63,241 nucleotides of DNA, filler included, from Stramenopiles sp. TOSAG23-6 (GCA_900128565.1; 4 parts of 4 records of this genome joined end to end with filler, not necessarily neighbours in it), one strand, 5' to 3'. Shown: positions 17,649 to 40,800, counted from the whole stretch's first letter. Notes: generated by a model not told the origin, from the sequence alone. Translations and numbers: made by a program.

Positions 17649-19142
17649 ATGGCAAAATTCCAGACTTCGACACAGCGGCAATTTTGGATGTGGAGTATGG
17701 ATGAGTTGAGCTCTTTACGCAAACAAACAAATAATTCATTATACCGTCGCTTTTCCACGACTGAACCATTTTCCCCGGATCCTGATGGATCGTGCAAAAT
17801 ATCAAGAAAGCCTCCTGCTACGCCTGCAACCGCTGTGGCTCAACAACTGACAGAGTTTGCTCTTTTATCGCCTGAACCACTCGCACCTTCTCAAGGTGAT
17901 TCCAACGTTGATAGTGAAAGGAAGACATTAACTGGGCGCAAACGGTCGCGGGAAAGTACCGAAACAGCAACAACACCAAAGCAAGTCATTAAATTTCTAT
18001 CCCCTGATCAAGAACAGTTACTCCTTGAGGGTTATCAAACAAAACTTTTTAAAATTTGTTCGCAGCTTGCACTGAGCGATCGCGTGACTGCGACAGCTGC
18101 TATATTCTTTAAAAGATTTTACGTCCACCATTCTCTTATGGAGTTTGATGCCCGATATATGATGCTCACTTCTATATTTACAGCTGCAAAAGTGGAAGAA
18201 CAAGAAACTCGTGCAAAAGCTGAGAAAATTGCAGATTTATGTTCATCTAATAAGGTACCCGTTGAGTCTTCAACAATCTTGGCTAACGAATTAACCCTAA
18301 TTATGGGATTAAAATGCAATTTAGTGGTACATCATCCTTTCCGCGCCTTGAGAGGTTTCGTGATGGATATTGATAAAGAAGGTAAAAAACGGGCGAATGA
18401 AATCGCTCGCAATGAAAATGTACAGAATGAAGGGATTGCATTTCGATTATGGGAGGAGCCAGGTCGGAAAGCACGTCTCGAACAAATTCGACTTACAGCA
18501 CACGAAATAATCAAAGAATCTCTAGTCACTGATTGTGCGCTTTTATTTTCCCCATCACAGATTGCACTTGTAGCATTATCATACGCAGTGGACAATGCAT
18601 TCCAAAATGAAGATGGATATAATGGGGAAGATGTGATTCAAGCATATTTGAAACAAAAATTTCCTTCGAAATGCACAAGTCTTGTATCAAGTATACAAAA
18701 AGCTAGAATATTAATTGATGCATATAGAAAAAAACAAAATGAGTTAATAGGTCCCAGTGAATCTGCAGAATCTGCTAGAAAGAAACATACACGAAAATTG
18801 CGAAAAATAACGAAAAGGTTAAAACTTTGTCGTGCAGTCATGTATATTTTATTTTTTTTCAAANTTCNANTTTNTTTTNGTACGAAANTTTNTACCNAAN
18901 AAATTTTTTAAGTTTTTTTTTGAAATATTTTTCCAAAATACATCGTTCCAATTATTGAAAAAAACCGCGAAGAAAAACGAAACAGAGAAAAATCTGAATT
19001 AGCAAATTTGAAAACTCATCGTAAAGCTATAAAAAATCAACAATTATTACTTGGTAATAATGAAAATGGGGATAAAACTGAGGATAATAATAGTGATTTT
19101 GTGTTGAGGAGACCCAAGAAACTTTGTCGGAAAAAATTATAA
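17649..19142 (+). CDS. CCNH: Cyclin H (exons 17649-18841, 18944-19142)
   Basis: N-terminal FQTSTQRQFW, cyclin box ATAAIFFKRFY...AAKVEE, LVVHHPFRALRGF, LLFSPSQIAL. Confidence 0.9.
18842..18943 (+). mobile_element. Introner-family intron I9, 102 nt, GT...AT
   Basis: gtcat|GTATATTTT...GAAATATTTTTCCAAAATACAT|cgttcc; opens a terminal exon to stop 19142; many ambiguous bases inside. Confidence 0.85.
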
Positions 19143-19342
19143 ATTGAATTTCAAGAAATTATAAAAATTTGGATTTTTATTGATGACTGATAGTAATTCT
19201 CGACACTCTTGGGGTATTATTTATCCTATTTAATCCCCAAAACGACATATACAGTTGTATCGAAATGTTCATTCATTGCATTGATCATCCAAAATTCACA
19301 ATGTTTTTTTCCTAGGCAACATTCAGAGAAGTTTTTAGAAAT

Positions 19343-19802
19343 TTAGAAAACTTTTTCAATTGTTTTGGGATCTATCCATTGATCCCACTCATCATTAAAT
19401 GATTTATAATGAATTTTTAAAAGAGGTCCCACGTAGTTTTTTTTCACAATAGCATCAAATAAAATTTTTTCTTTGCCCCAACACGCAACTACGGAATCAC
19501 CTTCACTAAACATTGGCCTATTTTCATTTGATATATCATTCGTAACAAATGTAGTATCTTTCGGCATCAATTCATCAATTAGTTTATACTCGTCAAATTT
19601 TTTATCCCATTCATTATAATGGACTTTCAGGGCATTTGCTTTACGTTTTATACTAATTATTGTAGCTTTTCGAAACTTGGAATCGTATGATTTTATTAAG
19701 ATTTCATCACCAACATGGACCTCGTATGACGTCATTTATTTTTGAAAAATATATCAAATTCAAAATGTATTAGGCTCAAATTCAAAATTCATATAGCACA
19801 AC

Positions 19803-19859
<57 letters not shown>

Positions 19860-22760
19860 TATACACAAGGTAGGAAAAAAATAAATAAAAATTCCAATAA
19901 TATATTTCAACAATACATACGAAATTAAAATGAATAATGATGAAAAAAATAAATAAAAATTCCAATAATATTATCAACAATACATATGAAATCAAAATGA
20001 ATAATGATGAAAACGTGCATTTCAAAATTTTCTTTTGTTCCTTTTTCTGTTTTCTTCGATGTTTTTTTTTTTAAACGGTCTTTTCCGCAGACTCGACATC
20101 GTAGCACTTTATGACTGTTTAATAAAGTGCAATACTTGCAACTCCATTCCTTTTTCTCTATATATACAATTAACCCACAATCAGCAATATTTTGTTTATT
20201 TCTATGTTCCTTTATTTTGGAAATAGACTTAGGGTTAGGTTTCTTTTTTTTTGTATTTTGTATGTCTTTATAATGTCCAGTATTATTTGATTTGTCTGAT
20301 GGATCCAAAGTGTTCAAAATACTATTTTTTGTATTATTTTTTGTACTATTTTCTGGATGATTTACTACTGATACACTTCCATCTGGATAAGATATACAGG
20401 TGTCAAGATGTTTTTCTTCATTCTTTGAAGCACTAATAACTTTACTCATATTCGATATTTTTTGGAAAATGTTTTTGCATCTATCCATCAGATTGTCAGT
20501 CTCNTTTTTTTTNCNTTTCGTCAGNTTTTGACAGTAAAATTGACAAACCAAATCCTAACGACGTTGTTGCATCATGTATACGTTCTTCAATGAATGCCAG
20601 CATTACATCAATACCAGATAATAATAGTCGCCAATCCCATTTATTATCAAATACTTGAGGAGATGCTGAGAACGTAAATCCAACAAAATCTACATTCGCA
20701 TAACTTTGAACTAAATGGCGTAAAGCACGAAGAAGAGTCAAAGTTTTTATCGAGCATATACCAATTTTATTAGGGTTAGGGTTAGGGTATATACCAATTT
20801 TATTCTCATGACAAAATCGCATATTTTTATGAGTTATTTCGTTTGAAGTTGCGCTACGATTTGTTCTAGATCTCTTATTTTGTTTTGTATTCAATTCATT
20901 TTTATCTGAAAAACATCTTTTATTTTTAGAGTTTCCATTAGAGTTAGTTGTAGAGTCATTTAATTTGGAAAAATATTTCAAAAAAAATCTTGAAAAAAAA
21001 TGTTAGGTATAAAAGTTCGTACGAAAACCAAAAAAAAAAAACAAAAAAAAAAAAATTTAGAATTTGAAAAAAAATAATACATACATTGAATTTATCTTGA
21101 GGTTTCTTTTTTTCTATAATTGATCTTACATTTGGCGCATGTAAGGCATGTAAAAAATCTGCACCAGCAAATATTATATCGAGCATCGATTGAACAGCAT
21201 TCCAAACAATTTTTCGATGATTTATAGCATAAGGCCACATAGAATTCAGGCTACATTTTGTATCAAACGAATTTCGAATTTGCGTGTTGCGCTTATCTTT
21301 TGAATTCCCTTGTGAATTAGACTTTGTGTCGCATTTTGTACCTAATATATTTATACCGCGTTCCCCGAGCCAATGATGATCCTCAACACCGACCAAGTAC
21401 TGTGAAAAAATATGTCAAATTTGAATTTTGTAAGGTATGAAATTTCAAATTTGGTTTAAAAAAAAAAAAAAAAAAAAAAATCTTGAGCTACTTACATATA
21501 ATAGCCAGATCGTATTAATTTTTGTCTATTTTTTAATGAAGATTGTTTTATTAACTGTGAATTGGGGAATGCATTTGAAAAGAATCTTGGTATAGATTTG
21601 ATACCTAAATGAAACGTTTTACCTACAATCAAGGGAATGTCTTTTCCCCCGAAATGTCCTAGGGTTAGGGGTTTTCCCTCGAAATGTCCTAGGGTTAGGG
21701 GTTTTTTGGTTGGAAATTGTCGGATTATAAAAAGAGTCTCCGGTGGTAATATTAAAAGATCACCAGTATTAATACAATGATTCCATATACGTGCGTAATC
21801 AATCATTGGGCAACCATGTAATAAATTCTCCAATGGAGAATTATTTTCTAACTTTCTAGGGTTATTTTCTAAATTCGTAGGGTTAGGGTTTCTAGTGTTT
21901 GACTTATTATCAGTAGGGTTAGGGTTTCTAGTGTTTGACTTATTATCAGTTTGAGATTGCTGGTCTACAAAGAAATTCGGTAATAACCATGCCTTATCTT
22001 CTCTGTGTATTGCTATAATTTCTACACATCCACTGATACACGAAATAATTGTATTAAAAGGATGCTGTTCCCAATTACCAAATTCATTATTTTTGGAATG
22101 TCCAATAGTTAAAAATTGAAAAGAATCTCCTGGAAACGAATGACTTGAAATATCAGCTGATGTATCAGATGTATCAGATTGTATAGAATTAGAATTTCCT
22201 AATTTGGTTTTATTACCACTTTGAAGCCGTAAGATATCTAACCCTAGACATTCAGGCAATCTAAATCGGAAACGCTCGGCTCCTTTTGTAACACCAAATT
22301 TCCAATTATTGATTTTGTATAATAAACTTCTTCTAGACGATACGTGGGGCTTGGAAATTAGTTTATCGTCTTTGTCTTTTTTATTTTTCAAATGTTTACC
22401 ATCGCCGGATAAAATATGTAGAGCTTCGCGAAGTTTCTTCATAACTGTAGATCTTGGTGTACCGTCTGGAAAAATCTCTTGTATGGGAACTAGTTCATCC
22501 CCCAACATAGTTATTAGATAATCACTGATTGTACCATCATTATTAAGCCACTGATTTGCAAAAGGACAAAAACAGTAATCATCAACAATTTCTGAACTAT
22601 CTGATACAAGGTTAGTGTGACGCGATCCAAAACCAGATTTATACGAAATAACTATGGGGTCGCCACTACAAATATACTTTCCAATAGTTTCTTCGAGTCC
22701 TTTCTGTCGAATACTAATCACCTCTAACGGTAGAAAAGAGGTGAAGGTGTCACGTAACAT
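19343..22760 (-). CDS. Putative chromatin protein: cupin/JmjC-like region, RanBP2-type zinc finger, two Tudor-knot/chromo-barrel domains (3 introns; frameshift near 20500 at ambiguous bases)
   Basis: Five collinear ORFs joined by introns I10-I12; WSCKYCTLLN..RCRVCG; VHYNEWDKKFDEY and IHYKSFNDEWDQWI; GDLLILPP cupin-like motif. Confidence 0.6.
19734..20018 (-). mobile_element. Diverged family intron I10, 285 nt, GC...AT, enlarged by internal duplication and microsatellite
   Basis: gaaat|GCACGTTTTCATC...GAGCCTAAT...ATATTTTTCAAAAAATAAAT|gacg; restores frame (FEMTSYEV). Confidence 0.7.
19803..19860. repeat. (TAGA)n microsatellite inside intron I10
   Basis: agatagatagat... read directly. Confidence 0.95.
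20958..21084 (-). mobile_element. Introner-family intron I11, 127 nt, GT...AT
   Basis: ttcaat|GTATGTATT...TTTCGTACGAACTTTTATACCTAAC...AAATATTTTTCCAAATTAAAT|gactct; phase 0 join. Confidence 0.8.
21395..21495 (-). mobile_element. Family intron I12, 101 nt, GT...TT
   Basis: tatat|GTAAGT...TTTCATACCTTAC...CATATTTTTTCACAGTACTT|ggtc; the nearby CAG gives an out-of-frame join. Confidence 0.7.
21650..21950 (-). repeat. Two in-frame tandem duplications (30 bp and 36 bp), each unit carrying TAGGGTTAGGG
   Basis: KPLTLGHFxG x2 and TDNKSNTRNPNP x2. Confidence 0.85.
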
Positions 22761-23074
22761 CAATGAATGTTATAACATTAAAACAATTATTCCTTAATCA
22801 TATGATTCATATCATATTGATGATTCTGAATATTTCTGATGAATAGAAAGAATCTCAAGTACTCACGACTCACGAGACGAGTCAAGTCACTCAAGTGACA
22901 GTCACGACACAAAAGAAGAATTCAAATGATTTATTGAGATTTCGTGTTTTGCATAAGATATATCGAACGTTTCAAATAAAGGACATGTTGACTGACCCAC
23001 TCTAACCAACTTTAACAAAACTTATATCAAAAGCATTCAGAAAGTGAATAATTATTGTACGGCTGAGATTAACT

Positions 23075-26000
23075 ATGGTTATTGTTGTTCCAGATTTCAC
23101 AAAGGGTCCAAGTTCGTGTATGTCTCCGACAATAAGACCTCGCACAGTGCGCAGCATACTACGTGACACCAGTAGAGAACTAATAAAGCCTTCGCGTACT
23201 CCGTTGCCTCATGCATCTACCTTTAGAGAAAAAGATGAACTTGAAGGATTAATAAAGCAAAAGGAAATCAAGAAAATCCAGGCTAGTAGGAGACGACAGA
23301 AAGCAAAAATACAAATGCGTAAAGACCGGATCGTCAGGAGGGGTGCTAGAATTTCCCCAGCGGAAGAAGCCGCTAGGACGGTCGTACCAGGCTTAGATTC
23401 TCCGAAAGATAAGTCTTACATTGGTAAAAATAACAGCGAATGGCGTCCATTGGATTTTGCACCTTTGCCGCTACCAGAATTTGGTATAGTTCGTAGTAAT
23501 GTGCGTATTCATAGAGGTAAGTGCAATTCGAAGAAAGAAAAAGCACTAAAAACATTGTCTGAAAAGGGATTCGCCGATCCTTTGACAGGAATAGTTTCTC
23601 TTATGGGACATACTCCACACAGAAATAATAAAATAGACAATGTTCAAAGTGTAAAATCTGTAAAGAATCAAAACGTCGGCCATAACACGAACAGGAAACA
23701 AAAGTTACTATACTTTGATTTGGGATATGGTCATGGACACTCGAAAGAACACATTGTCGAAGACAACTTTGAAGAGACTTCTATGAATGCAACTGGGGAG
23801 GATAGTTCTCAGAATAATACTAGAGAAAAGAGTTTCCAAAATACTACCAAACAGGGTAACTCTGAAATAGAACAAAATAGTGGTGATCTGGATAGCAAAA
23901 ATCATAAAGTATCAGAATCTGATAAAAGTATTAATGACGCAACAGCTGCTGAATTACTTCTTAAGGGTTTTCGTCGTCGTAAATCTAAGGTGAAGGCAAC
24001 GGAGAGTTTAGCCGATATTTTAAAATTGGCAAAGAACCAGAAAGATGGTTTATATCGACATTTGGGAGAATTAGAACAAGAGCAAGTTTATTTAAATATG
24101 CATAATTGGGTAAACAATTTCAGTCGTGAAAAAACAGAGTATGCTTCGAACGACGTATTTCTTCAAGTAAAGTTGGCATCTGTTTTTTCCATTACGTCAG
24201 ACATGTCTACAACCTCAGATCTCTCAAGAGATAGGGTACATGCTATTCTACAACTTTTGATTGAATATGGTGAAAGACTTGGGGAAACATCACCATTGGC
24301 TATTGTTGCTTTAGCAGTTTGTAAACATTCGATAATGCATGCACGCGAACCAGAAGGTCAAGGCGAAGCACACACGACAATTGAAAATCTTACAGCGCTC
24401 TTTTCAGGACAAAGAGTTGAAAGTGATGAAGAATTGCAGATTAGCCTTGCGATGCTGAGTATATTAAGTGGTGGTAATTCGGTACAAGAACGTTGGAAGT
24501 TCTTGCGAAGGCATTTACTATATTTCAATGCGTATGCGCGAAATAAGGGCAAATTATATATGGAAAAGAAAAGACGTAAAGCTATAGTTTTTAAGCTTGC
24601 GCGACGTGATAGACAACGAGTAGTTGAAAAGCGCGCAGCTGAGAATATAAGAATGTGTTGGAGTTCGGCATTTCTTTTGCCTTTTCTTCTTCACTGGAAA
24701 AAGTTTGTCTTAATGAAGGAAGGTAAGAGAATTCAGGAAGTTGCTGCGCATTTTCTTAATGCTGTTAGAAGGAAGAGTACTGTTTCATACTTTCAATCGT
24801 GGGTAGTTTACGTAGAACAGTCTAAATGTCGTAAGGCTCTTGCATTAAAAGAAGGACAGTTAAAGCGTATACGCATCTTAACCGGAAATGTCAAACGTGT
24901 AAAACAGTCCATACTCAACAAACAGAAAGAGAAGGAAATTGTTGCTGCCAAAGTTAAAGAAATTCAAGAAAAACTTGATGATGCCCTCCGTATACTTCGC
25001 TTACCAGAAAGACAGCCCCCAACACTAGCTTCAATCCTGAAAGGGTTCTGTAGTGCAGCAATACCATTAGAGCGTGTGCTTGACTGTGGGTCACACGATA
25101 TTTTAAATGATATCTGTCGAGGAGGCTCAGGTACAGAAAGATTTCAGCCCATGATGATGTATGATTCATCGGGTAATAGTAAAAATGTAGGTGAAGAAGA
25201 GCAAGAAGATCCTTGGGATGAAACGAAAGAAGAAGAAATCAGGTCTTGGGTACCAGGTAAACATCTACTTACAGTGGTTAAAGAGAAAACACCAGCATTC
25301 AGACCATTTAGTACTCGAGTGGGACACAGATTACTTCGCTGGTTGAATTTTCAAGTTGCTGAAAGTGGAATTTTAACTGAAGAAATCTCTAAATTAATAA
25401 ATGCGACGAATGGGGAAAGCATGTATTTGGCAAAGCCCCTTCAAGATGGTAAACTTTTGACAACTATTATCCGCACCCTTTCGAAGAAAGAATTTGCAAT
25501 GAACAGAACAAAACTCATATATCCTTCGTTTTTCAGGTGCATTCATGTCGAGCGAAATGATGCTACAGGTACAAAAGAAGGTGTGTACTACTGGGCTCCA
25601 GGTCACGTCATTCCTCGAATGAAATATGAGCATATTGGACCAGGTTTCAAACTATCTGAAAAAGAATGGCTAGAACGCTTTCCTGAAAATGAAGAAGAAT
25701 TGGTCCCTGGGAGTTTTGGTTATTTAACCCGAGAAGAGTTGAATCAGATGACTAATGAACCTATTGCCTTTGATGATGCAAAATTTGCATCTTTGAGCAA
25801 TAAAGAGGTTCGTTGGGTTTATGTAGCATGGCTGAGAAATGGTGTGCGTATTGTGCTCACCCCAGATGAATTTAAACAACGATTTCCAGGTGATAAAGGT
25901 TTCGATTTTAAAAAAATGGTATCTCTTGAATCTTTATCTTGCCTTAAAGCTGCTCTGTCCGAGATACAAAATTTATTTCAGTGTGGTCGTTTTGTAAACA

Positions 26001-27797
26001 CCACTGAGAAAATTACAGGGAAAACAGAACCTCCTACGGCAGAGGAACTACAGATCCAAGCCGCAAGACTTGAAAGGTTAAAACAACGTGAATTATCAAC
26101 AGGTATCGTTGTACATGTCATGAGTAAATATTGTGGTACTCGGGTTGCCATACCAACTGAAAGTGTATTAGAGCCTTTCGCCTTCGCTCTAATTGGTCAA
26201 ATTTGCTGTCTCCATCCAAATACGCAAATAACAGCACAAATGCAAGTTTACCGTGACAAAGCAACGGTTGCCGCTTGTGAAGCTATTCAAAAAAAGTTGT
26301 TTTGGATCAATTCGCACATAATTCGAATTTTCTATCATAATGATGTCGCACCGGTAGATCTAAGCTTGGATGAGTTAGATGGGCGTATTACTAAGCTTAG
26401 ATCTGTGCGACAACAGCTATTCGAAAACTATATAGATGCAATGAATCGAATGCAAGTATGCCGCGCCGAGCGAGCTGCTTTCAAAGAGTGGACTAGCGAC
26501 ATTATACATGTTTCTAATCAGTCACTGTGCACTACCATACTTTCTCGGAAAGTGCGCAAAGAAGAAGATTTGGATGATGGCACTTATACTACTGTTGATT
26601 CTGTACAATTGCAGGCAACTTTCCAGAAAATCGGAGGAGAAATTGTCAAAGATAGTACGCTACAAGAAGACGAAATCAAAAAAATATCCCAAGTTCTTCG
26701 CCAACGAATTCGTGATTTAAAGCGCATTTTTGCGTTTTACTGTGCCATGGGGACATCAAATGATGGTAATGATGATGAAGTCGGTGGCGAAGCTTCATTA
26801 GATAAGGCTGAATACTGGCGCTGGGTAAAAGATTGCAAATTTCAGAAGAATCGTAAAGCTTTGCCTTCAGTTCGACTCGATTTAATCTTCCAAAATGCAA
26901 TGACCGATTATAGTAAAACAGGGAAAGCTCGAATAGCAGGATTATCAAGCAACGACTTGGTTGCAAAACAATGGATCAATTCATTGGTTCGCATTGCTTG
27001 TTATCGTTTTCAACATGTGAAGCCGCCATTAAAATTGCATAAACGCGTGGAGAAATTATTACACGAATGGATAATTCCTAATGCATGTATGTTTTATTTT
27101 TTTTCAAATTCGAATGTTTTTTTCGTACGAAATTTTGTACCTAACAAATTTTTTTTCAAATATTTTTCTAAAATACATGCTCTGTCGACATAGATGTGTT
27201 CCGCGATCGGGTGGCTTTAAAAGAAGTTCAAGCTCGTCTTACAGCGATGCGAAGATTCTTGAAGCCAATATTTAATGAATATGCTGCTGATGACGACAGT
27301 GATGCTGCTATTAATTCACTTGGCACTGTCAATGTAAATGAATTAACTACATTTGCAAAAGAATGTAATTTATTTGGTCCTTTGTTTGGATATCGATCAC
27401 TGCGAACAATATTTTGCTACTGCCAACAGGAAGAGGAAGCATTAGAGGAAAACGAAGAAGATGGAGAAGAGTCAGAAATGGTATATTCGGAATTTAAGGA
27501 GGTGGTCGTTGCAATAAGTTGTTTTATGCGACCTAATCCATATGTAACTAGTATGTATTATTTATTACACTTTTGTATTCATATATCCAACGTATTACCC
27601 ATTTTTCTTGTTTACTACACAGCAGTTTTAACACTTGTATAAATATTCATCATATATATACTTTTCTTTTCAATATCAACAACACTACAGTGGAAATCAA
27701 TGCTTATAATTTTGTAAATGAAATGGTGATGCCTGCTTTAGTAAGTTTACCACGATTTGGTGGTAAAAAAAAACTTAAATGGAAGAAACCAAAGTAA
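23075..27797 (+). CDS. Large hypothetical protein with coiled coil and C-terminal EF-hand-like region (exons 23075-27086, 27179-27550, 27691-27797)
   Basis: 1372-aa ORF plus two exons joined in frame; LKRIFAFY...LDKAEYWRWVKDC, MVYSEFKEVV. Confidence 0.7.
27087..27178 (+). mobile_element. Introner-family intron I13, 92 nt, GT...AT
   Basis: gcat|GTATGTTTT...TTTCGTACGAAATTTTGTACCTAAC...AAATATTTTTCTAAAATACAT|gctct. Confidence 0.88.
27551..27690 (+). other. Canonical GT-AG intron I14, 140 nt, lacks the family core
   Basis: acta|GTATGT...CACTACAG|tggaa; in-frame join. Confidence 0.8.
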
Positions 27798-27905
27798 TTT
27801 TATATAAATGTCAATGTAACTATTTTAACGAATATTGCTATTTATTTTTGTAGTAAAGATATATCTCGTAACTATATCCAACTACTACATTCGTATATCA
27901 CAAAT

Positions 27906-30900
27906 CTACCGTTTACCTCGATATCTTAACCCAGAAGAAGTAGAAGACGCAGAAGAAACATTCTTACTTCCCGTCGAAGTAGACTTTGTTACATTTTCGG
28001 ATGTACTACTTAATAATTCCGCTGCGGCAGCTTTCCGTCTACGCCAGTACATAAAGGCGCATCCTCCCCACACAAAAATATTTCCAGAACAGAAGATCAG
28101 TAAACCACCAAACACTTTAATAAATGTCATAAATACTGGCATTAAATCAGAAAGAGTGGTTGCCTTCGCACTTTCCATCATTGCTGAAAATATATCTGGA
28201 GAAAATACCCACGTACAGAACCTATCCCATACAAACGTACCAACTAATGCTAGAGAGACGAGATACATTACATGAAAACGAAATGCATCATCAGGAAATG
28301 GTTCCAAATGAATTAAACCATTTACATATGGGCTTACAGCCCACGCGCATGCACCCACGCCAGCAAAACATAAAAATAACGACAAAAATAAAGCGTGATT
28401 TTCAATTGTACCTTTCATCCATGGTCTACCTTTGTAGTTTACAAATAAAACAGCAACGATTGATGATGTTTCTACCAAAAATACGACTGTATTCATCAAA
28501 TTTGGCATAAATGGACGTGACCACATAAACATAATATCTGCAAAAGGGTCGGCAGTTACATCTGTAATGTCAGATTCTGAGGAATCCGATATTGCTTGGA
28601 GTGCATCATAATCATCATCATATGTCTTTGCAGCATTGCGATTGAAAGCAACCACAGCTTTTAATGCTTTTGGGCCCATTGCTTCTGTTGCTAGATGTAC
28701 TGCTGAAACCATACAATACAAATGTATGCAGGCCTGGCCAATCATTGAAATAAATATTGTCGGGTGAAATAGTGAATGCAATGGCCGTGTACGATGCATT
28801 TTATCTACAGGAGTTGCGTATGAAAAGGCTAAAGATGCAATCATAATAAGCCAAGACGAAGCCATCAACTGCCGTTCCGAACTTCGTGCACCTTCAAGTG
28901 ATAAAGCTGAGAGAGTGTACGCTGAAATTATACATTCAAGCATCATATATAGTAAAAAAATATGTTTGAAGTTTGAATTTTGTTAGGCGCGTGACAAAAT
29001 TGGACAACAAAAACAAATTAAAATTGGAATGAATGATGAAAACATACATGATCTGTTGCTGTTGAAGGGCACTAAGTAAAGTACAACGCCCTTGGCGAAT
29101 AATATCAACAACCGTGCGAATCGTTGGCGTCCTTGAGGTAAAAGGAGCAGCCACTGATGCATCACCTGGGCGCACAACAGGAAGCATACCTCCCATATCT
29201 TCCATATCACCTAAAGCATCCATTGGATTTCCAGAATCTGCTTTGTACACATTATTCTTCGAACCAAGTCTTCTTGATTCCATTTGCATTTCATTTTTGA
29301 CTCGCAAAGTTACATTCTTTAAAGCAGTCAAATTTGCCATGAAACCTGTTTGCCCTTCTGCCGCAAGTCTTGCAAGTTCTTCTTCCAGCATTTCTTTTTG
29401 TTTTCCTGCCAATTCCTTTTGTTTTGTAGCGAGAATAGCTTTAGATTTTGCCTGCATCACCGCCTGGGAACGTTTTAAATCTTCGGCCTGTTTATTCAAC
29501 TCATCTTCAGTACTTCCAGCACTATTTTCAATTTTGGATAATGATGTTTTATCATCTTTAGCTGTCGTTGTGTTGGCATTGCCGTACCCTGAAAGCAATG
29601 CTAGGCCAACATCAGCTTGTTTTAATGCACCAACGTCATTACCACCATCACCACACATAAGAACATGGTGACCTTTACGCCGCTGCATCTCACGAATAAG
29701 TATTGTGAAAAAATATTTCAGAAATTTGAAATTCGTTAGGTATGATATTTTAACTAAAAATAAATGAATTCATTAAAATAATCAAAACGTACAATCTTGG
29801 CTTTTCCTTGAGGAGACATTCGAGCAAATACTTGAATAGCATCAACATGATCCCACAACGTTCCACCACTTTTCTCTGCTGCCGCTAAGAGAACTTTTTC
29901 TGTTACAACCAAATTATTATGTTTTGCAAGTTCAGGAATTCCTAAAGCATTAAAGGGAACAGAAATACGTTCTGATACATCACCCGTTGCAGAATTCCAT
30001 GTAAATTGTTCACCAGTACTATCAACAGTCAATACCAATGACGAATAGCTATCCGTACCGATTTTAGATAAGACATTCTTCTTAGAGTCACTTCCATTTT
30101 GTACAACATTGTCACGGCATATACCCACCTCTTTAGCAACATGAAGCGCTGTCAAAGGCGCATCACCTGTAATCATTGCAACGGAATGGTCAGATTCACG
30201 CAAGGATCCTATTACTATACGCGAGTCTTTGCGAATCATACAAGTGAATGCAATAAAACCAGCGAAATGTAAATTGCTTTCTACCCACTCACGAGATGGA
30301 CCATCACCACCTTCTGTACCGCATTCTCCCTTTGCACATTGTTTATAAGCGAGCGCAAGCACACGCATTCCATGTTCGGCAAGATGTCGATAACTCTCAT
30401 CATACCAAGATGGAGCAGCGCCTTCAGCAAGTAATGATCGTAAAGCTTCAGGGGATCCTTTGACAAGACAATATTTACCACTGGAAAGGCCATTTTGGCG
30501 CCCCTCAACTTTACACACAACACTCATTCTCTGAAGCTTCGACGAGAAATGATACCGATGAAGTATCTTTGAAGATGAAACAGCAGAATTTCGAGCTTTT
30601 TTTTCAACACTACAAATTTTATTACGAATATTATCTATATCCTTTTGTAAATCGGAAATTTGCATATTTTGTTCAGGAGTTGCAGGTGCATTACCCGATT
30701 TGATTAAATCATGTAAAGCCTTCAATTTTTCAGATACCATTTTTTCACGCTTTTTGAGATTAATTGTAGTACCAGGAGTAGCAGTGTTAGTATCTGCATT
30801 AAATTGCCATTGAACGCCTTTTAGAGCCGCGAGTTCTATAGGATCACCTACCATACCAACATCTTTAACCTTTACCAAAGAGTGACACGATGCAAGAACT

Positions 30901-31613
30901 AATGCAGCCTCGGCGGATGATTCAGGTACTGGGCTAGTTTTACGAGGACATTTAGACACATCAAACTCTCCTGACTTTTGTTTTGCTTTTCCTACCTTAA
31001 GATCAGGTTCTGAATTAACAGTAACTACACCAACAGGCGATAACGTATCCGTTGTAATTGTCCCAGTCTTATCAAACAAACAATGTGAAACCTTTCCAGC
31101 ATACGGAACTCGAAATGGCTCGGTGCAAAAAAGACCCGCTTTCGTGAGAGACATGAGGGCAGTATTTACAGCTAATGCCATTTGCAGAGGAAGTCCTCGA
31201 GGAACGACAGATGTGATTATGTAATGAAGAAAAATATTTTGAGTTCGAAATTCGTTAGGTACAAAAACTTTGTTTTTTTTTTAATTGTTTTGGATTGTTT
31301 TTAATTGTTTTGGATTGTTTTGGATTGTTTTGAATTGTTTTGGATTGTTTTGGATTATTTTGGATTATTTTGGATTAGGTGCAAAAAAAGTTTAGGTAAA
31401 AAAACATACATAATGACACATTTCAATAATAATTCATGTGTCGTTCGATCACCCTTTTCAAGTCCTTTCTTCAAGACATATCCAGATGCAACTAAAGCAA
31501 AGAATAATAACAATAATAATGCTAAACCAATCTCTTTGGAATCTCCAGAGACTTTTTGAGTCGATGCAAACTCAATCATCTGCATTAACTCACCTTGCGA
31601 TGAACTGAACCCG
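27906..31613 (-). CDS. ATP13A1: P5A-type ATPase (Spf1/ATP13A1), 5'-truncated (exons 31613-31410, 31218-29793, 29697-29048, 28944-27906)
   Basis: TGFSSSQG, ITSVVP, FDKTGTIT, FSSKLQRMS, MITGD, MCGDGGNDVGALKQA, GDASVAAPFTS, IRQGRCTL, VNYKGRPW. Confidence 0.92.
28945..29047 (-). mobile_element. Family intron I15, 103 nt, GT...AT
   Basis: atcat|GTATGTTTT...GCCTAAC...CATATTTTTTTACTATATAT|gatg; no AG inside. Confidence 0.88.
29698..29792 (-). mobile_element. Family intron I16, 95 nt, GT...TT
   Basis: aagatt|GTACGTTTT...CATACCTAAC...AAATATTTTTTCACAATACTT|attcgt; TT on both sides. Confidence 0.82.
31219..31409 (-). mobile_element. Family intron I17, 191 nt, GT...AT, enlarged by a 10-bp tandem array
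   Basis: attat|GTATGTTTT...TTGTACCTAAC...AAATATTTTTCTTCATTACAT|aatc; restores CVIIITSVVP. Confidence 0.9.
31281..31378. repeat. 10-bp minisatellite (TTGTTTTGGA-like) inside intron I17
   Basis: tggattgttt repeated with variants. Confidence 0.9.
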
Positions 31614-31668
31614 GTGTATTTTGGAAAAATATTTCAAAAAAAAATTCGTTAGGTACAAAATTTCGTAC
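31614..31668 (-). mobile_element. Family intron I18 (3' part), inferred end ...AC
   Basis: GTACGAAATTTTGTACCTAAC...CCAAAATACAC|cgggttc (TGF motif); 5' end lost at contig end. Confidence 0.85.
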
Positions 31669-31768
31669 NNNNNNNNNNNNNNNNNNNNNNNNNNNNNNNN
31701 NNNNNNNNNNNNTTAATTAATTAANNNNNNNNNNNNNNNNNNNNNNNNNNNNNNNNNNNNNNNNNNNN
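31669..31768. other. Artificial contig linker
   Basis: N44-TTAATTAATTAA-N44. Confidence 0.97.
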
Positions 31769-31820
31769 TACGAAATTTTGTACCTAACAAATTTCGAATT
31801 TAATTTTTTTTACAATATAT
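31769..31820 (+). mobile_element. Family intron I19 (3' part), ends ...AT
   Basis: TACGAAATTTTGTACCTAAC...TTTACAATATAT|gtggata. Confidence 0.82.
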
Positions 31821-34800
31821 GTGGATAAGTCGGAATAATATTTGTTTTGATACCGAAAACCCACACTTTTTTGCTGCGCGTGTAGCTGCCGCTCTTCGTG
31901 GTCGCTCGGAATTTGAACAACAAGTTGCATATGGAGTTTATATCGATGAAATGCCAACAGGGGGGGGGTTACCTAATCTTGCAACACATTGGATGGATCG
32001 TATTATTGACGTTGCATGTAACACGAAATTATTACGGGGAAAGCAGGAGAAATTGAATGTTGGGGTTCTGACTGTAATGGCCAATAATGAATATCAACGA
32101 CACATGAATAAGATTATTTTTGACTTGTATATGAAAAGTAATATGAAAATATTTTCGCCTCTAGGGGTAAGACTTCCGTCCACACTGAATGTTCACAAGA
32201 TTCCTCAAAATGGAACTCTTCCTCTTGAGCTCGCAAGAGATAATGGTGGTTTCGTGGATAATGAAGCTCCAACATATAATCAAAACAAATCATTGTTTAC
32301 AAATGTTTGTATTTATACCAGCACTGAAAGTGCATTCAAAACATTGGAGCTAGTTGCGGCNGAAAACACGAAATTAGATAGTCAATTAGCCTACACCATT
32401 TCTGAAAGTGATAGCCCGCCTTGTAGACTTCAGAACTTCATTGCCGTACAAACTAGCCAAATGAAAGAAATCTATAACTATATGGATGGTGATTGGGTTG
32501 CAGCAGTTAAGGATCATATTTTGACTAACATGAAAGATGAGGGGCGTGAATTTAATCTTAAAGAATCCAATCGGGAAAAGTATGTATTGACTCAACTATC
32601 TCGATTTTTACGACTTGTAAACTATACAATGTCAGATTCACTGAGATACTTTGTACTAAACTCAATCGAAGCATACAAGAATATGATACTTTCTGCGGGT
32701 GGAGGAACAGAATATATTGAATTTGTTAATGAAGTAGTTCCAAACTCAGAAGATGTTTCTTCTCTTGAAGTAGCTGCGGATGATGAAGCCAAAGAGGAGC
32801 CTGCAGATAATCCTGCAAAAATAAAACCTGAGCATGAAGATTCTGCATCAACCGACAAGCCTGATGAACTAAGTTCACCTCTGTTTATACTTGATGTTGC
32901 CATCGCAGAAGTTGAGACTGTAAAAAAGAAAAGTTCTAAAAATTCCAAAAAGGCCAAAAAGGACAAAAAGGACAAAAAGAGTGGTATGGATAAGAAAAAA
33001 AGTACCAAAAAGAAAGATGTAAAAGACGAAGAGACAGTTATACCTAAAGAACCTACAGTGAAGCGTAAGAATTTTGTGTTCCAAACAAGCCCCGAAGATA
33101 TTCACAAAACAGTTGTTGAACTGATGGAAACTACTATAACCACTCTTGGAGGTATTCCTATTGTCGAACGCAAAGTGATGAATAGACTCTATTGGAAAAC
33201 AAAACCTTCAATCGCAAGCTGTACACTTAAGGACGATGCTGTCAAAAACACCACTAATGAGATTAATGAACACTTTCAGGCATGTATCGGACCGGTCAAC
33301 AAATATCTATCTAAAACATTCAAAAAGTATGTCAAGTTTATTCGAAGTGACATTGATACTCTTCTCGATGCCCTAGAAAAAAAGTATGATGGTTCGGAGG
33401 GCGGTGATCCGGAAGAAAATATGCTTGCTATGGTGGAAGAAGTCACTAAAAAGGTGAAGAAACACAGCAAAGAAATCAAATCAATTGCGACTAATATTCC
33501 TGACGCAATTCGAATTAATATCTTTGAAATATCGTGCCTCCATATTAAAAATGTATTGATTCATAAACATCAGAACTTCAAACGGCGCTTATTAAACGTT
33601 CTGGCTGAAAGTAATAACAAAGCATGTCAAGCCCTAAACGAGCGATTTGAAGTAATAATGGAACATTTTCGTCTACCAGTAGATAAAATAGAACAGCTGG
33701 ATGAAATGGAGGAATATATCAAAGGATGTCCTGATCTTGTCAATGAAATTAATCTTAAGGCGAAACGCATTCATGAGAAGTTTGGTCTTCTTGATGAAAT
33801 GAAATTTCAGTTGGCAGATGATGATTTCATCAACAAATGGACACTTTATGGCTATCCTCACTACATATACGAAAAAATGAAATCATTGAAGAAAAGTAAT
33901 GCAATAAAGATGGAAGAATATTCCGAATCCTTGAAAGATGAACAACAACTCTTCGATGAAGAACTTCTGAAATTAGATAAAGAAGTACAAGATCTCCAAA
34001 AATATAATGAGTTATCTAAACTGAAAGAAGTTGTACCTATATGTACGAGTATAAGAAAGCGGCTTGAAAGCATGAAGCTTCAAACTCAGCTCTTCAACTC
34101 GCGTGAATCCCTTTTTGGATCAGATATTACAGAATATTCTGCTTTAAATGGTATTGCAAAAGCTTTCCTTCCTTTTGAAAACTTATGGATGACGTGTTCT
34201 CGTTGGCAAGAAGGACAAAAGAGTTGGTTCAAAGATCAGCTTTTAACTTTGAATCCGGAACAGATTGAAAAGGATGTTGCTGAATTCACCAGAAAACTGA
34301 ATAAATCAGCCAAAGCGATGAAAAAATCTGGTTTGAGTAAAATTGCTGATGTAGCAAAATCTACAATGAAAGAAGTAAAACAATTTTCACACCTCGTGCC
34401 TCTTGTTATGTCTGTTGTGACCCCAGGTATGCGCGATCGTCACTGGGAAGCAATGGCAACGAAACTGTCAATTGATATTGATCAATATTCTCGAGATTTC
34501 ACACTTGAAAAACTGCAAAATATGGGAGTGCCTGAGCATTTGGAAGAAGTCACTAAAATTGGTGAAATTGCTAATAAAGAGTATCAAATTGAAAAAGCAA
34601 TGGAAATGATGCGCGATCAATGGAAACCCATCGTACTAGTTGTGGAACCATACAGAGAAACTGGTACAAGTATATTTAAAGAAGCTGATGTTATAATTGC
34701 ACTTCTTGATGAACACATTACAATGACCCAAGCAATGTCATTTTCCTCTTTTAACAAACCATTTAAAGAAGATATTGAAGCCTGGGATAAAACTCTTTCA

Positions 34801-37800
34801 ACCGTATCGGAAGTAGTCGAAGAATGGTTAGCAGTACAGCGTAATTGGTTGTATTTGCAACCCATTTTTGATAGCGATGATATCAAAAGACAATTGCCTA
34901 GTGAAAGTAAGCGGTTCTTCACTGTTGATAAAAACTGGCGCCAGACTATGAAAGATGCGTCAAAGAATGCTTTGGCTATTGAGTTCTGTGACAGTGAAAA
35001 ATTATACGAACGATTTCGCGAAAGCAATAATTATCTTGATATGGTACAGAAAGGTTTGAGTGATTATTTAGAAACAAAGCGAGCAGCATTCTCTCGTTTT
35101 TATTTCCTTTCAAATGATGAATTGCTTGAAATTCTTTCTGAGACGAAGGATCCAACAAAAGTACAACCCCACCTTAAAAAATGCTTTGAGGCCATTGTCA
35201 GTGTTAATTTCAATAAGCAATCTGAAATTACATGTATGCGTTCCAGGGAGAAAGAACAGGTCCAATTTGTTACTAACGTAAAAACTAAAGATATCCCTGT
35301 AGAATCGTGGATGAATGACTTACAACAAGCAATGTGTGATGCAGTTAAATCTAATTTTTACGCTGCGGTACAAGATTATCTTGTGGTCCCAAGAACAGAA
35401 TGGATGCAAAAATGGCCAGGTCAACTTGTACTTAATTGTAGTCAAGTTCATTGGACAAAAGAAATGGAGGCTGCAATGGAAGCTAAAGGCGCAGAAGGTG
35501 TCAAGGAATACTACCAAAAACAGCTTCAACAATTGAATGATATGGTTGCGCTAGTGAGAAGTCCAAACCTTGCTAAACTTGCGCGATCATCTGTTGGCGC
35601 TCTTTCGGTAATTGATGTACATGCAAGAGATGTTTCAGTTGAGATGATCAAGATAGGAGTTAAAGATAAAAAGGCATTTCTTTGGATGTCTCAAATTCGA
35701 TATTACTGGATCAGAGATACTGACGAGAATGGCGAAGATTTGAACCCTGGAGTGGAAGATTGGACCACAGGAAAAGCATTTGGTATAATGGTTACATCAA
35801 AACGACGATATTCTTGCGAATACCTTGGTAACTCCTTTCGGCTTGTGATAACACCTCTGACAGATAAATGTTACCTCACACTTATGGGTGCTTTGGAGAT
35901 GATTCTTGGTGGATCTCCCGCCGGGCCTGCTGGGACAGGTAAGACAGAAACCGTTAAGGACTTAGCCAAGGGATTAGCTAAGCAATGCGTCGTATTTAAT
36001 TGTTCCGATGGAATGGACTACAAAATGACTGGTAAATTCTTTAAAGGATTAGCTTCATGTGGTGCTTGGTGTTGTTTCGATGAGTTCAATCGTATTCTAA
36101 TTGAGGTACTCTCCGTTATTGCACAGCAAATTATGACACTCCAGGCTGGTGTGTTGCAGGGAAAGCACCGAGTTCTATTCGAAGGAACTGATATCGCTCT
36201 GAGCTGGGAATTTGCTGTGTTTATTACAATGAATCCCGGATATGCTGGACGCACTGAACTGCCTGATAACCTTGCTGCCTTATTCCGGCCAGTCGCTATG
36301 ATGGTTCCAGATTATGCCATGATTGGCGAGATTATGCTCTTTGCATACGGATTCGGCAGTGCCCGTAAATGTGCACAGAAGATGGTTGCCACATTTACCC
36401 TGTGCTCCGAACAGTGTTCGAATCAACCACATTATGATTATGGTATGAGAGCTGTTAAAACAGTTATTGTCGCATCTGGTAACTTGAAACGTGAAGAGCC
36501 CGACCTAGATGAAGAAATGCTGATGCTTCGCGGTCTTATTGACGTGAATGTTCCTAAATTTCTCAGTCACGATTTACCATTATTTGAAGGTATCATGGGA
36601 GATTTATTTCCTGGTAAAACTAAGCAATATATAGATTACGGGGCGTTATTATCGTGTATGAAGATAAAATGTAAAAGGCGACAATTGATGCCAACCCCTT
36701 GGTTTATTGAAAAGGTTATTCAATTGTATGAAATGATATGTGTAAGACACGGACTGATGGTTGTAGGTCCTACGAATGGTGGTAAGAGTAGTTGTATCCG
36801 TGTTCTTCAAGAGACTTTAACTATGCTCAAAGATGAAGGAGTTGAAGGAAATCGCTTTGAAACTGTATGGGTGAAATATATCAATCCCAAATCTATTACT
36901 ATGGGTCAATTATATGGTTGTTTTGATCCAAATACACACGAATGGCAAGATGGTGTCCTTGCGAATATGATTCGGCTTTGTGTCCAACAAGCTGACTCAT
37001 CCCTCAAGTGGGTGCTCTTTGATGGCCCAGTAGATACACTATGGATAGAATCAATGAATACTGTATTGGATGATAATAAAAAGTTGTGCCTTAATTCGGG
37101 CGAAATGGTTGCTCTGTCGTCTGAAATGACAATGATGTTTGAACCTGCTGATTTGGCTGTAGCATCACCTGCTACAGTAAGCCGATGTGGTATGATTTAT
37201 ATGCAGCCACATTCGCTTGGTTATAGTCCTATTACTGATTGTTGGTTAGAAAATATCCCAGCGTGCTTCTCTAACGAAATGAAAATAAAATTGATGATTC
37301 TCATGGATGTACTGCTTCAACATACAATGACATTTTTGCGCCGCAATCTCAAGGAATGCGTCCCTACAGTAAACCATCAACTACAGTGGTCGTTACACAA
37401 ATTGTTGGATTGCTTCTTTGCTAGTTTCATAGTTAAAGATGGTGAAGAACCCATAAAACCAGAGGTAATTGCCAATTTTGAGAAGAATATTGAGCAAGTC
37501 TTTGCATATGCTTTCACATGGAGTGTCTGCGTTACAGTCAACCTTGAAGGACGTAAAAAGTTAGATTCTTTCATTCGCAATACTTTAGATTCAAATAACA
37601 TATGTCAGACACCTAACATTCCAAATGAAGGCATGATTTACGACTATTGGTTTGATATAGAAACTACGAAATGGATTTATTTTCAAAAGTTGGCCCCAGA
37701 ATATGTATTTGACGGGTCACTTGGCTTCAACGAACTTGTTGTGCCCACGATGGATACGGCTAGATACACAAAAGTACTTGATATGCTTTTAATTAATAAT

Positions 37801-40800
37801 CATCACGTCATGATGTGTGGGCCTACAGGTACAGGAAAGACAGTAAATATTTCTAAACACCTTCAATCTGGCATGGACAAAATGTACATCCCTTTATGTT
37901 TCACTTTTTCTGCACAAACTTCAGCCAATCAAACACAAGACATTATCGATGGTAAATGTGACAAACGGAGAAAAGGTGTATTTGGACCAATGGCAGGCAA
38001 AAGATATTTAATTTTTGTAGATGATTGTAATATGCCACAACGAGAGATATATGGTGCGCAGCCGCCAATCGAATTACTTCGACAGTGGCTTTGTGGCCAA
38101 GGGTGGTACGATAGAAAGACTTTAAAGTGGCGCCAAATTATTGATTCTACTCTTATTTTAGCATGTGGTCCGCCCGGGGGTGGTAAAAACCCCGTAACAC
38201 CACGATTCAAGCGCCATTTTAATTGTATTGCATATACCCAATTAGAAAATTCAGTAATGTATACAATTTTCAAGTCAATATTTGAAGGATTTTTGGCTAA
38301 TTTCGAGCCAGAAGTTCAAAAAATGTGCGAATCTATAGTATGGTCGTCAATAGAAATTTACAACACCACTGTTAGTGATCTTCTGCCGACCCCTATAAAG
38401 CCCCATTATACGTTTAATACTCGCGATCTTGCCAAGGTATTCCAAGGCCTTTTGATGGCTACTAATCGCAAAATAACTTCCTCAATACAAATAGCTCGAA
38501 TGTGGGTACATGAAATTTGTCGTGTATTCGCAGATCGTTTAGTTAATGACGAAGATGAAGGTTGGTTCAAAAATTTAGTCTTTCAAAGGTTAGAAAATCA
38601 ACTCCAATTAGATAAGAGTGAAGTGCTACCTAACGATTTACTCCTCTATGGTGATTTTATGATTCCTGGGGCAGATCCCCGAATATATGCAGAAGTAGTT
38701 AAAGTAGATGAAGTTCTGCCAATTGTTAATGAATATCTTGCTGATTATAATGCGGAATCCAAAAATGCGATGAATTTAGTATTATTCACCGATGCCATTC
38801 GACATGTCAGTCGAATATCTCGTATTATTAGACAACCTCTTGGAAATGTATTATTGCTTGGTGTTGGTGGTTCAGGGAGGCAATCCCTTACTAGACTTGC
38901 AACTTTTATGGCTGAGTATGAGTGCTTTCAAGTAGAAATTGCGAAAGGGTATGGTTTACCAGAGTGGAGGGAAGATCTTAAACAATGCTTGCTCAAAGCA
39001 GGTGTTGATAACAAACCTGTTGTATTCCTCTTTGTCGATACACAAATAGTATTTGAAGGAATGCTTGAAGACATTAATAATATTTTGAATTCTGGTGATG
39101 TTCCAAACTTATATGGACCTGAGGAGATGGAACAAATTAATAATACTTGCCGTATTGATTGTCAAAAGAAGCGCATCCCACCAACAAAAATCAACATTTA
39201 TGCCCAATATATTATTAGAGTTCGTCGAAATATTCATATGGTTATTGCAATGTCTCCAATGGGTGAACCTTTTCGTCGCCGGCTTCGTATGTTTCCTTCA
39301 TTTGTAAATTGTTGTACGATTGATTGGTTCGCAGAATGGCCAAACGAAGCATTGTTATCGGTTGCTACTAATTCAATGAATATGACTGATATGGAACTAG
39401 GAGATTCTTTTGATAAAGTCGTAGACTTCTTCAAAACGATTCATCAGACCGTAGCTAACTCATCGAAAGATTTTCTTACCGAATTAGGACGACATAATTA
39501 TGTCACCCCAACATCATATTTGGAATTGCTTGATACATATAAAAAGATTATCAAGATCAAACGAATAGAAGTTGGAGATTTACGTGATAAACTTCAAAAT
39601 GGTCTCAATAAACTAATTTCTACAGGGGAAGCTGTCAATGATCTGCAAACAAAGCTTGAAAAAATGCAACCCGAGCTTGCTGCAACCCAAATTGAAGTAG
39701 ACGCCATGATTGTCACAATTAAAGCAGATACAGTTGAAGCCGATAAAACAAAAGCGATAGTGCAAGAAGCAGAAGCAGAAGCAAATATTCAAGCAGCTGA
39801 AGCCAAAGCAATTGCTGATGATGCTCAAAGAGATCTCGATGAAGCCTTACCTGCACTTGAAGAAGCAGTTGCGTGTCTGAAACTTTTGAAGAAAGCGGAC
39901 ATTGACGAGGTCAAGTCGCTGAAAACACCACCTTCGGGTGTAAAATTAACAATGGAGGTTTGTTGTGTTATGTTTTCGGTTAAGCCTGTTTTAGAAAAAG
40001 ACCCAAACAAGATGGGAGCCAAGATAAAAAATTATTTCGCCGCTTCAAAAACCAAATTGTTGTCTGATGCAAAAGCGTTTTTGGCAAGACTCACAGAATT
40101 TGACAAAGATAATATGGAGGATGCCTTGGCAACAAAATTGAAAGTCTACGTTGATGATCCAAACTTTACACCAAAAATGATTGAGAAGGCATCGAAGGCC
40201 TGTAAAGCTGTTTGTATGTGGGCTCGAGCTATGTATAAATACCACACAGTAGCAAAAGAGGTTGAACCCAAGCGTATTCTACTTGCCAGTGCACAAGAAT
40301 CGCTAGCTATTACAATGAAGAAGTTGAAGTCTGCGCAAGATCAGCTTAGTGTTGTAACTGCAAAATTAGATAAACTTGATGCACAACTTCAAGAGTCATT
40401 AACAAAGAAGGATAACCTCGCCCGCGAAGTCAAGCTATGTGCAGATCGATTAGTACGTGCTGATGTTTTGATAGGCGGCCTCGGCGGAGAAAAAATTCGA
40501 TGGGCAAAATCTGTTGATACGTTAACTCTTGCATATGATCGCCTGATTGGGGATGTACTTATTGCATCTGGAACAGTGGCTTATTTGGGACCTTTTACAC
40601 CTGGATTTAGAAAGAGAATTGTAGATATTTGGAATAACAAATTACTTTCAACCGCAGAAGTTCTTCCATTCACAGACGGATGCAATATGACTTCAGTGCT
40701 CGCTGAACCTATTCAGGTACAAGCTTGGAAGATTTTGGGTCTACCAACAGATGGTCACTCTTTAGAGAATGCAATTGTTATGGATATAGCTCGCCGCTGG

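Follow-up and report, generated by a model that had tools for sequence, protein, structure and literature searches.

Repeated, transposon-like introns with non-AG 3' ends interrupt a P5A-type ATPase gene in a marine stramenopile

Repeated introns that resemble small transposons are known from several eukaryotes, and they provide the comparison for the introns described here, which interrupt a gene for a P5A-type ATPase in a stretch of 63,241 bases from Stramenopiles sp. TOSAG23-6 (GCA_900128565.1; the whole stretch is referred to below as the window) and which end without an AG. The terminal AG is among the most constant features of spliceosomal introns and the catalytic centre recognizes it directly when the exons are ligated. 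Introners, found in Micromonas, Aureococcus, Chrysochromulina and dinoflagellates, among others, are multi-copy, near-identical introns that behave as small non-autonomous DNA transposons and have a short duplication at their borders, features that the present family appears to share. In a Chrysochromulina type the element carries the 5' splice site, and its 3' splice site is co-opted (PMC9860276); a further likeness is that one splice site is carried by the element, one copy of the duplication is spliced out and the length of the mRNA is unchanged (PMC9860276). The two differ in that introners are GY...AG introns in which a duplication, where co-opted, supplies the AG (PMC9860276; PMC12130899), whereas here the duplicated dinucleotide is AT or TT and no AG is used, and in the size of the duplication, which is 2 nucleotides (nt) here versus 3-9 nt in introners (PMC9860276), with inverted termini here of 3-4 nt. 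Because introner surveys take annotated introns as their starting point, and in one of them a family whose splice sites are unfamiliar is dropped if RNA does not support it (PMC12130899), a non-AG family could escape such surveys. Our search of the literature found no non-AG introner family in a marine stramenopile; the family tables of the surveys sit in supplements beyond the reach of that search.

Three other systems come close to the present one in different respects. Amoebophrya (Syndiniales) is likewise a marine protist with repeated introns, direct repeats that overlap the intron borders, non-GT-AG ends and a proposed transposon-like spread (PMC7789003). Its introns carry inverted repeats of 8-20 nt that form a hairpin and have no consistent terminal dinucleotides at either end (PMC7789003), whereas here there is no conserved pairing, the GTAYGT 5' site and the branch site are canonical, only the 3' end deviates, and the host is a stramenopile rather than an alveolate. 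In the tunicate Fritillaria borealis, transposon-derived introns are processed with non-AG 3' ends, commonly AC and AT (PMC11282704), as in the present case, but there the 5' end is also non-canonical (AG-AC, AG-AT) and the rule is escaped by about 95% of introns (PMC11282704), in contrast to the textbook GTAYGT 5' end found here and to the candidate AG-ending introns in the same window. The introns of euglenids and hemistasiid diplonemids share with ours non-canonical borders, duplication-like repeats at the junctions and a suspected origin from miniature inverted-repeat transposable elements (MITEs) (PMC11282704; PMC12621601); they differ in that GT, a polypyrimidine tract and a 5' end complementary to U1 are described as missing from them, and their ends as extensively paired. 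The present family is a probable transposon-derived intron with a non-canonical border, and it is distinct in combining canonical 5' and branch sites with a non-AG 3' end, without pairing of the ends, in a stramenopile.

The P5A-type ATPase gene occupies positions 27906-31668 on the minus strand, with four open stretches from 31613 down to 27906. In the direction of transcription, its exons and the family introns between them are as follows.

31614-31668, minus strand: 3' stub of family intron I14, its last 55 nt, with CCTAAC at 31653-31648 and the terminus ..AAAATAC at 31616, then AC
31410-31613, minus strand: exon A (..TGFSSSQGEL...KCVI), supported by the open reading frame, the joined frame and homologues
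31219-31409, minus strand: family intron I17, 191 nt, GTATGT...CCTAAC (31259-31254)...TTCATTAC followed by AT, supported by its joint and DNA contigs
29793-31218, minus strand: exon B, which spans the M4 segment, DKTGT and the N and P domains, supported by the open reading frame, homologues and TIGR01657 positions 405-793
29698-29792, minus strand: family intron I16, 95 nt, GTACGT...CCTAAC (29740-29735)...CACAATAC followed by TT, supported by its RNA joint and homologues
29048-29697, minus strand: exon C, the MCGDGGNDVGALK hinge and a long loop, supported by the open reading frame, structures, TIGR01657 positions 801-864 and RNA contigs
28945-29047, minus strand: family intron I15, 103 nt, GTATGT...CCTAAC (28987-28982)...ACTATAT followed by AT, supported by its joint, TIGR01657 collinearity and a DNA contig
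27906-28944, minus strand: exon D, the last exon, with a TAG stop at 27906-27908, supported by the open reading frame, TIGR01657 positions 871-1047 and alignments with Spf1 and a fungal P5A

When joined, the exons 31410-31613, 29793-31218, 29048-29697 and 27906-28944 form a single frame of 1105 codons that ends in TAG; the N-terminal part of the gene is missing because the contig ends at 31668, inside I14. The greater length of I17 is due to a tandem repeat of 10 nt in its interior (31284-31376, unit ATTGTTTTGG on the plus strand, 9.3 copies, 91% matches), and environmental DNA contigs differ from the window inside this repeat.

A preliminary description of this region had proposed that four introns of one family interrupt a single conserved enzyme, and that their junctions fix the lengths of the introns and exclude AG acceptors. 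The sequence statements of that description are all borne out. Three complete introns and the I14 stub were indeed found in the gene, and the position at which that description began, 28945, is exactly the last base of I15. None of I15, I16 and I17 has AG at its 3' end. As had been stated, I15 contains no AG anywhere, and use of the next AG downstream would cost 23 nt of exon and the reading frame; in I17 the single AG lies upstream of the branch motif, and the first AG past the motif is out of frame, again at a cost of 23 exon nt. The GAG that lies 9 nt downstream of I16 is in frame, which had led to I16 being regarded as less decisive than the other two.

In order to examine the joints, the spliced product was aligned locally with 120 homologues and gaps were counted within 12 residues of each joint. 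Removal of I17 gives CVI/IITSVVP (the slash marks the joint), the peptide expected from the preliminary description, and this joint was without a gap in 76 of the 77 high-scoring segment pairs (HSPs) that span it, an example from a relative being DRTTHELLLKCVIIITSVVPRQLPMQ. All 12 HSPs that span the I15 joint (..QQQQIM/MLECIISAY) were similarly ungapped (for example CTLLSALQQQQIMMLQCTISAYTLSA), as was the alignment with residues 994-999 of Spf1, and the exon matches to TIGR01657 are collinear and abut, with no profile positions lost, across this joint; the Spf1-type peptide of the preliminary description is here replaced by computed alignments. At I16, a gap was present within 12 residues of the joint in 73 of 81 spanning HSPs, and in the rows listed it fell always in the variable loop after ..REMQ and never at the joint. 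The closest relatives at this point read KAKVIRNLQ, KARVIRAMQ and KATVIRMMQ versus KAKI/IREMQ here, without a gap. The lengths of the introns and their non-AG 3' ends are thereby established, for I15 and I17 by homology and for I16 by an RNA contig, described next.

Contigs of the metatranscriptomes X7, X9 and X11 and of the DNA metagenome X3 were placed on positions 22000-31668, and the results given here are those among the matches listed. One contig of poly-A RNA (X9 record 27, 180 nt) covers 29613-29697 and then 29793-29887 (85 + 95 nt), with no mismatch and no extra letter. In this RNA, I16 is out as a 95-nt piece that begins with GT and ends with TT, and the in-frame GAG is unused; the junction is the one predicted for I16, and no other junction was seen in RNA. 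Additional RNA contigs lie on exon C (X7 record 22, X9 records 25-26 and X11 record 6). The DNA contigs of X3, an independent metagenome, have the introns in place: record 14 spans 28042-29730 and includes I15, record 15 spans 29713-31313 and record 16 spans 31304-31616, I17 being present in records 15 and 16, while records 14 and 15 enter I16 from both sides.

Ten exonic differences in the P5A gene separate the window from the environmental contigs, the intron-bearing X3 contigs included, and all ten are synonymous third-position changes. Judged from these substitutions, the interrupted gene is under purifying selection. It is not a pseudogene, one of the cases in which the preliminary description would have failed, because the frame of 1105 codons is intact, RNA contigs lie on the exons and the ten differences are synonymous. 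These data also bear on the alternative that the insertions are never removed, in which the gene is dying, or the insertions are cut from the DNA itself, in a different nucleus or at a different stage of life, and the RNA comes from an insertion-free allele or paralogue. Such an allele would give exactly the X9 contig and the family is partly young, with copies up to 95% identical, yet 1105 codons have stayed open despite four insertions in one gene, the X3 contigs that bear the synonymous differences also bear the introns, none of the joints listed for the DNA run X3 links exon to exon, and the frame is kept in all ten coding copies of the family, in at least eight genes. We therefore consider this alternative very improbable.

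The introns of the P5A gene belong to a family with 15 copies in the window, 11 complete and four cut by contig or window ends, in at least eight genes. In addition to the four listed above, the copies are the following.

282-383, minus strand: complete copy (m329), supported by reading frame and family alignment
2549-2641, plus strand: complete copy (m2600), terminus ATGC, flanking repeat TT, supported by reading frame and family alignment
3252-3345, plus strand: complete copy (m3307), supported by reading frame and family alignment
5673-5773, plus strand: complete copy (m5729), in a gene of the DHH/DHHA2 type, like family II pyrophosphatases
15714-15814, plus strand: copy cut by a contig end, 5' part present
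17114-17217, minus strand: complete copy (m17162), intergenic or in an untranslated region, with no long open frame to its left or right
20958-21084, minus strand: complete copy (m21006), supported by reading frame and family alignment
27087-27178, plus strand: complete copy (m27141), GT...ATAC followed by AT, in the neighbouring gene of 1381 codons, 95% identical to m329
31769-31820, plus strand: copy truncated by a contig end, with its 3' part preserved, at the start of the dynein heavy chain frame
62667-62764, minus strand: complete copy (m62710), supported by reading frame and family alignment
63155-63241, minus strand: copy cut by the window end, 3' part present

The family consensus consists of GTAYGTTTT..., an A/T-rich middle, TTTTCGTACGAAATTTTGTACCTAAC and a U-rich tail ...GAAATATTTTTYCAYAATAC, followed by 2 nt, and the core of the element is about 90-105 nt long. 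The 5' GTA and the motif CCTAAC are invariant in the ten aligned copies, while neighbouring columns vary; among the 11 complete copies the 5' site is GTATGT or GTACGT in eight, GTACAT in two and GTACTT in one. Compared with U2-type introns, the family has a GTAYGT-like 5' site, a predicted branch motif of the form CTRAY and a U-rich tract, and lacks the terminal AG. A search of Rfam returned no match in the window and no small nuclear RNA.

Removal of the element together with 2 nt keeps the reading frame in all ten coding copies, with the qualification that for m329 another offset is also open and that for m2600, the weakest case, the terminus was taken as ATGC after a first reading had failed the frame test; the eleventh complete copy, m17162, has no neighbouring long frame. 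The 2 nt that precede the GT are the same as the 2 nt that follow the terminus in ten of the 11 complete copies, being AT in eight and TT in two (I16 and m2600), and the two TT/TT cases indicate that the pair of flanks varies together. A fourth junction was confirmed outside the P5A gene, at m5729, where the joint GST-C-TIL aligns without a gap to solved family II pyrophosphatases (GSTATI, GCTATVL), although it can be placed anywhere within seven positions owing to the hexamer TGTACA at both junctions. The gene cut by this copy (4766-6408, plus strand) resembles family II inorganic pyrophosphatases.

Full-length pairwise identity within the family ranges from 54 to 95%, with a median of 64% versus 37% for shuffled sequences, and a relationship between the copies is plain from this likeness. 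Four copies in unrelated places are 82-95% alike (282-383, minus; 17114-17217, minus; 20958-21084, minus; 27087-27178, plus), and this young subfamily, one member of which lies outside any long frame, suggests that spread of the family is recent or ongoing. I15 and I16 are 59-74% identical to the other copies, and from sequence divergence the P5A copies appear to be older than the young subfamily. Three contig ends lie inside copies, at 15714-15814 (plus), 31614-31668 (minus) and 31769-31820 (plus), which indicates that the repeat breaks the assembly. The summed contig depth in X3, a rough measure, was about 18,000-34,000 in bins that hold the family versus about 9 in unique sequence. In X9 the family bins were at 5-7 versus 2-4 for exon bins, a ratio that is a weak hint only, as contig depth cannot rank parts of a gene. 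A scan of metagenome contigs with a 19-nt family motif gave three loci, all in unrelated sequence and with no family context.

It could be argued that these are ordinary, old introns, alike only through strict and extended splice signals rather than as copies of a mobile element. To this explanation we give almost no weight: the likeness spans the whole length of the copies and reaches 82-95% among four of them in unrelated genes, the flanking repeat co-varies as TT/TT, three contig ends lie inside copies, one copy is outside any long frame, and the excess in DNA depth is thousands-fold. Against these points can be set that long shared signal motifs are possible in intron-poor protists and that I15 and I16 have the rather low identities given above. 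Even ordinary introns would leave the non-AG result standing.

With the cut placed at GT, the 3' end is AT in nine and TT in two of the 11 complete copies, while the other registers would give AC, GC, AT or AA, or CA or CT. GT comes first in all 11 copies, T is the last base in all 11, and the conserved GTAYGT then serves as the 5' site; a cut at GT is, on this pattern, the register that we prefer. If the next AG downstream were used, the frame would be lost in six of the ten coding copies (seven of the 11 overall), and since this is about the two-thirds expected by chance, the positions of AG do not appear to be under selection. The feature that is constant at the 3' end is an offset of +2 nt past the conserved, ATAC-like terminal block. 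The distance from CCTAAC to the end ranges over 34-45 nt, a spread that rules out a fixed ruler from the branch point to the 3' end.

In U12-type introns the 5' splice site reads /RTATCCTT, and the branch site lies about 10-15 nt before the 3' end. Those with AT-AC termini resemble the present family in that a non-AG 3' end is chosen without an AG and in having a strongly conserved branch motif, but the family has GTAYGT(T) at its 5' site and CCTAAC at 34-45 nt from the end. This comparison is relevant to the possibility that the introns and the mRNA are as described above but both cuts lie 2 nt further upstream, making most copies AT...AC introns. On account of the 2-nt repeat, that register fits I15, I16, I17 and the RNA contig equally well; AT precedes GT in eight of the 11 complete copies, eight of the 11 would end in ..AC or ..GC (the others reading ATAT, ATAT and TTAA), introns with AT-AC termini are already known to work, and AC and AT are common 3' ends in Fritillaria (PMC11282704). 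It would, however, give mixed ends on both sides (AT in eight, TT in two and GT in one at the 5' end; AC, GC, AT and AA at the 3' end) and place two bases of intron ahead of the perfectly conserved GTAYGT, and the resulting 5' sequence, ATGTATGT, is unlike a U12-type site, with a branch motif that is not close to the end. We regard this register as unlikely, and under it the 3' end would still not be AG.

Nor does an RNA hairpin set the 3' end: RNAalifold found zero conserved pairs in ten copies, the only complementarity of the ends being GUAU/AUAC, and the extended pairing of the ends that is typical of the nonconventional introns of euglenids and Amoebophrya is missing. This result argues against removal by a route independent of spliceosomal reading of splice sites, like that of the nonconventional introns of euglenids, hemistasiid diplonemids and Amoebophrya, as do the end complementarity of just 3-4 nt, the U-rich tract, and the invariance of GTAYGT and CCTAAC amid varying columns, which is the signature of selected spliceosomal signals. 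A nonconventional route would account for a direct repeat that overlaps both borders, a non-canonical 3' border and the complementarity of GTAT and ATAC, and there are parallels in the Amoebophrya introners, with direct repeats of 3-5 nt and inverted repeats (PMC7789003), and in the non-canonical introns of diplonemids, which pair their ends (PMC12621601). On balance such a route is improbable, more so than the shifted register.

The explanation that we favour, and consider likely, is that the four interruptions of the P5A gene are copies of an abundant, transposon-like introner, each removed exactly at the element plus one 2-nt repeat and with a non-AG end. We envisage that a MITE-like element inserts and leaves a target duplication of 2 nt, usually AT and sometimes TT, and that the element would supply its own strong 5' site (GTAYGT), branch site (ACCTAAC), U-rich tract and ATAC-like terminus. 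The major spliceosome would then carry out the first step normally, with branching at CCTAAC and cleavage at the G of GTAYGT. Exon ligation may be aimed by the 3' block of the element (..ATATTTTTYCAYAATAC) at a fixed +2 position, and not by an AG or by the distance from the branch site. The reader of this block could be a U2AF-like factor, or alternatively the short GUAU/AUAC complementarity of the ends might serve. Divergent U2AF paralogues in Fritillaria are reported to read non-canonical 3' ends (PMC13326754) and offer a precedent for a reader of the kind proposed. As one copy of the duplication would leave with the intron, the original reading frame would be restored. A broader proposal, that the cell performs an AG-independent second step on thousands of introns, with the 3' site defined by its position relative to a motif of the element, exactly 2 nt past the element's end, whatever the sequence of the site itself, beside ordinary AG introns, we put forward tentatively, as a possibility that falls just short of being favoured.

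Several observations weigh against these proposals. The junction in RNA comes from one contig in one run, at a depth of 3.3, and for I16 only, with no RNA contig across I15 or I17 in X7, X9 or X11 among the matches listed. An allele that lacks the insertion would yield the same sequence as X9 record 27, whether as a transcript or as carried-over DNA. Record 23 of the RNA library X7 covers I16 unspliced, and the RNA libraries X7 and X11 hold family sequence at a DNA-like excess. With respect to a mobile element, m5729 has GT as one flank and AT as the other, which share a single nt, the terminal inverted repeat amounts to just 3-4 nt (GTAT/ATAC), and no transposase in the window, no empty site and no lariat was seen. 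Owing to the 2-nt repeat, the mRNA is silent on whether the register is GT...AT, TG...CA or AT...AC. Finally, if the candidate introns outside the family that are listed below do end in AG, the cell would need both an AG and a non-AG mode.

The identity of the interrupted gene was assessed from profiles and solved structures. TIGR01657, the profile for type V P-type ATPases, is matched collinearly by its exons, with E values of 9.5e-89, 1.2e-25 and 2.9e-17; being fragments, the matching stretches stay below the whole-protein cut-off. The phosphorylation motif DKTGT is present in exon B. The best-matching solved structures are P5A enzymes, namely ATP13A1, yeast Spf1 and a fungal P5A. For exon C, the P5A structures gave E values of about 1e-18 versus 7e-8 for the P5B enzyme ATP13A2, and for exon D only P5A chains match among solved structures. 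By these similarities the product is closer to P5A than to P5B. The M4 signature of P5A enzymes is PP(E/D)xP, and the corresponding segment here (31190-31215, minus strand) reads VVPRGLP instead. The nearest relatives, which are unnamed, have VVPRQ(L/M/F)P in M4, and the Sphaeroforma-type and animal-type matches have VVPPELP or VVPPDLP. Judged from this motif, the protein is a member of a divergent P5A subgroup in which the substrate-pocket motif is altered.

N-linkers at 15815-15914, 31669-31768 and 47481-47580 separate the four contigs that make up the window. It is AT-rich (G+C of 29-40%) and carries long eukaryotic reading frames in the standard code, among them the following.

31821-43962, plus strand: axonemal dynein heavy chain, an open reading frame of 4052 codons

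The best labelled relatives of this dynein are stramenopiles; the top labelled match (77% identity over 601 residues) has a label that contains 'MAST32', and further labelled relatives include Triparma, Ectocarpus, oomycetes and similar organisms. On these matches a diplonemid as the source was rejected. Seawater metagenomes and a small organism-labelled data set contain DNA nearly identical to the window, parts of which are found in seawater metatranscriptomes as well. The first exon of the dynein gene was lost to the contig end inside a family copy, and after this first intron, a family intron, the frame continues without any interruption. Since the dynein gene is uninterrupted while four introns fall within 3.7 kb of the P5A gene, introns appear to be sparse and unevenly spread.

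Three candidate introns outside the family, each with an in-frame AG at its 3' end, were recognized from the reading frame only.

3753-3883, plus strand: candidate non-family intron, with a family-like 5' half and telomere-like CCCTAACCCTAA inside
27551-27690, plus strand: candidate non-family intron
18703-18790, minus strand: candidate non-family intron

Two of the three end in ..ACACTACAG. There are also ten interstitial telomere-like blocks, (CCCTAA)2-3, in the 63 kb.

1086, 11606, 20787, 21670, 21700, 21888 and 21924, minus strand: telomere-like blocks
3850, 17419 and 46729, plus strand: telomere-like blocks

The blocks at 20787, 21670/21700 and 21888/21924 lie within open frames, with short tandem duplications on their flanks or around them.

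The introns of the P5A gene belong to a family that keeps textbook 5' and branch signals without an AG and, if confirmed, it would be a natural system in which to learn what else aims the second step of splicing. It indicates how a transposon that duplicates 2 nt of its target can turn into a harmless intron even where that target offers no AG; if the broader proposal is true, the element could land in almost any coding sequence without harm, a case of co-adaptation between a transposon and the spliceosome. Among the abundant marine grazers that have not been cultured are organisms of this kind, and most of their genes would be mis-annotated or missed by gene finders and introner surveys built on the assumption of GY-AG introns.

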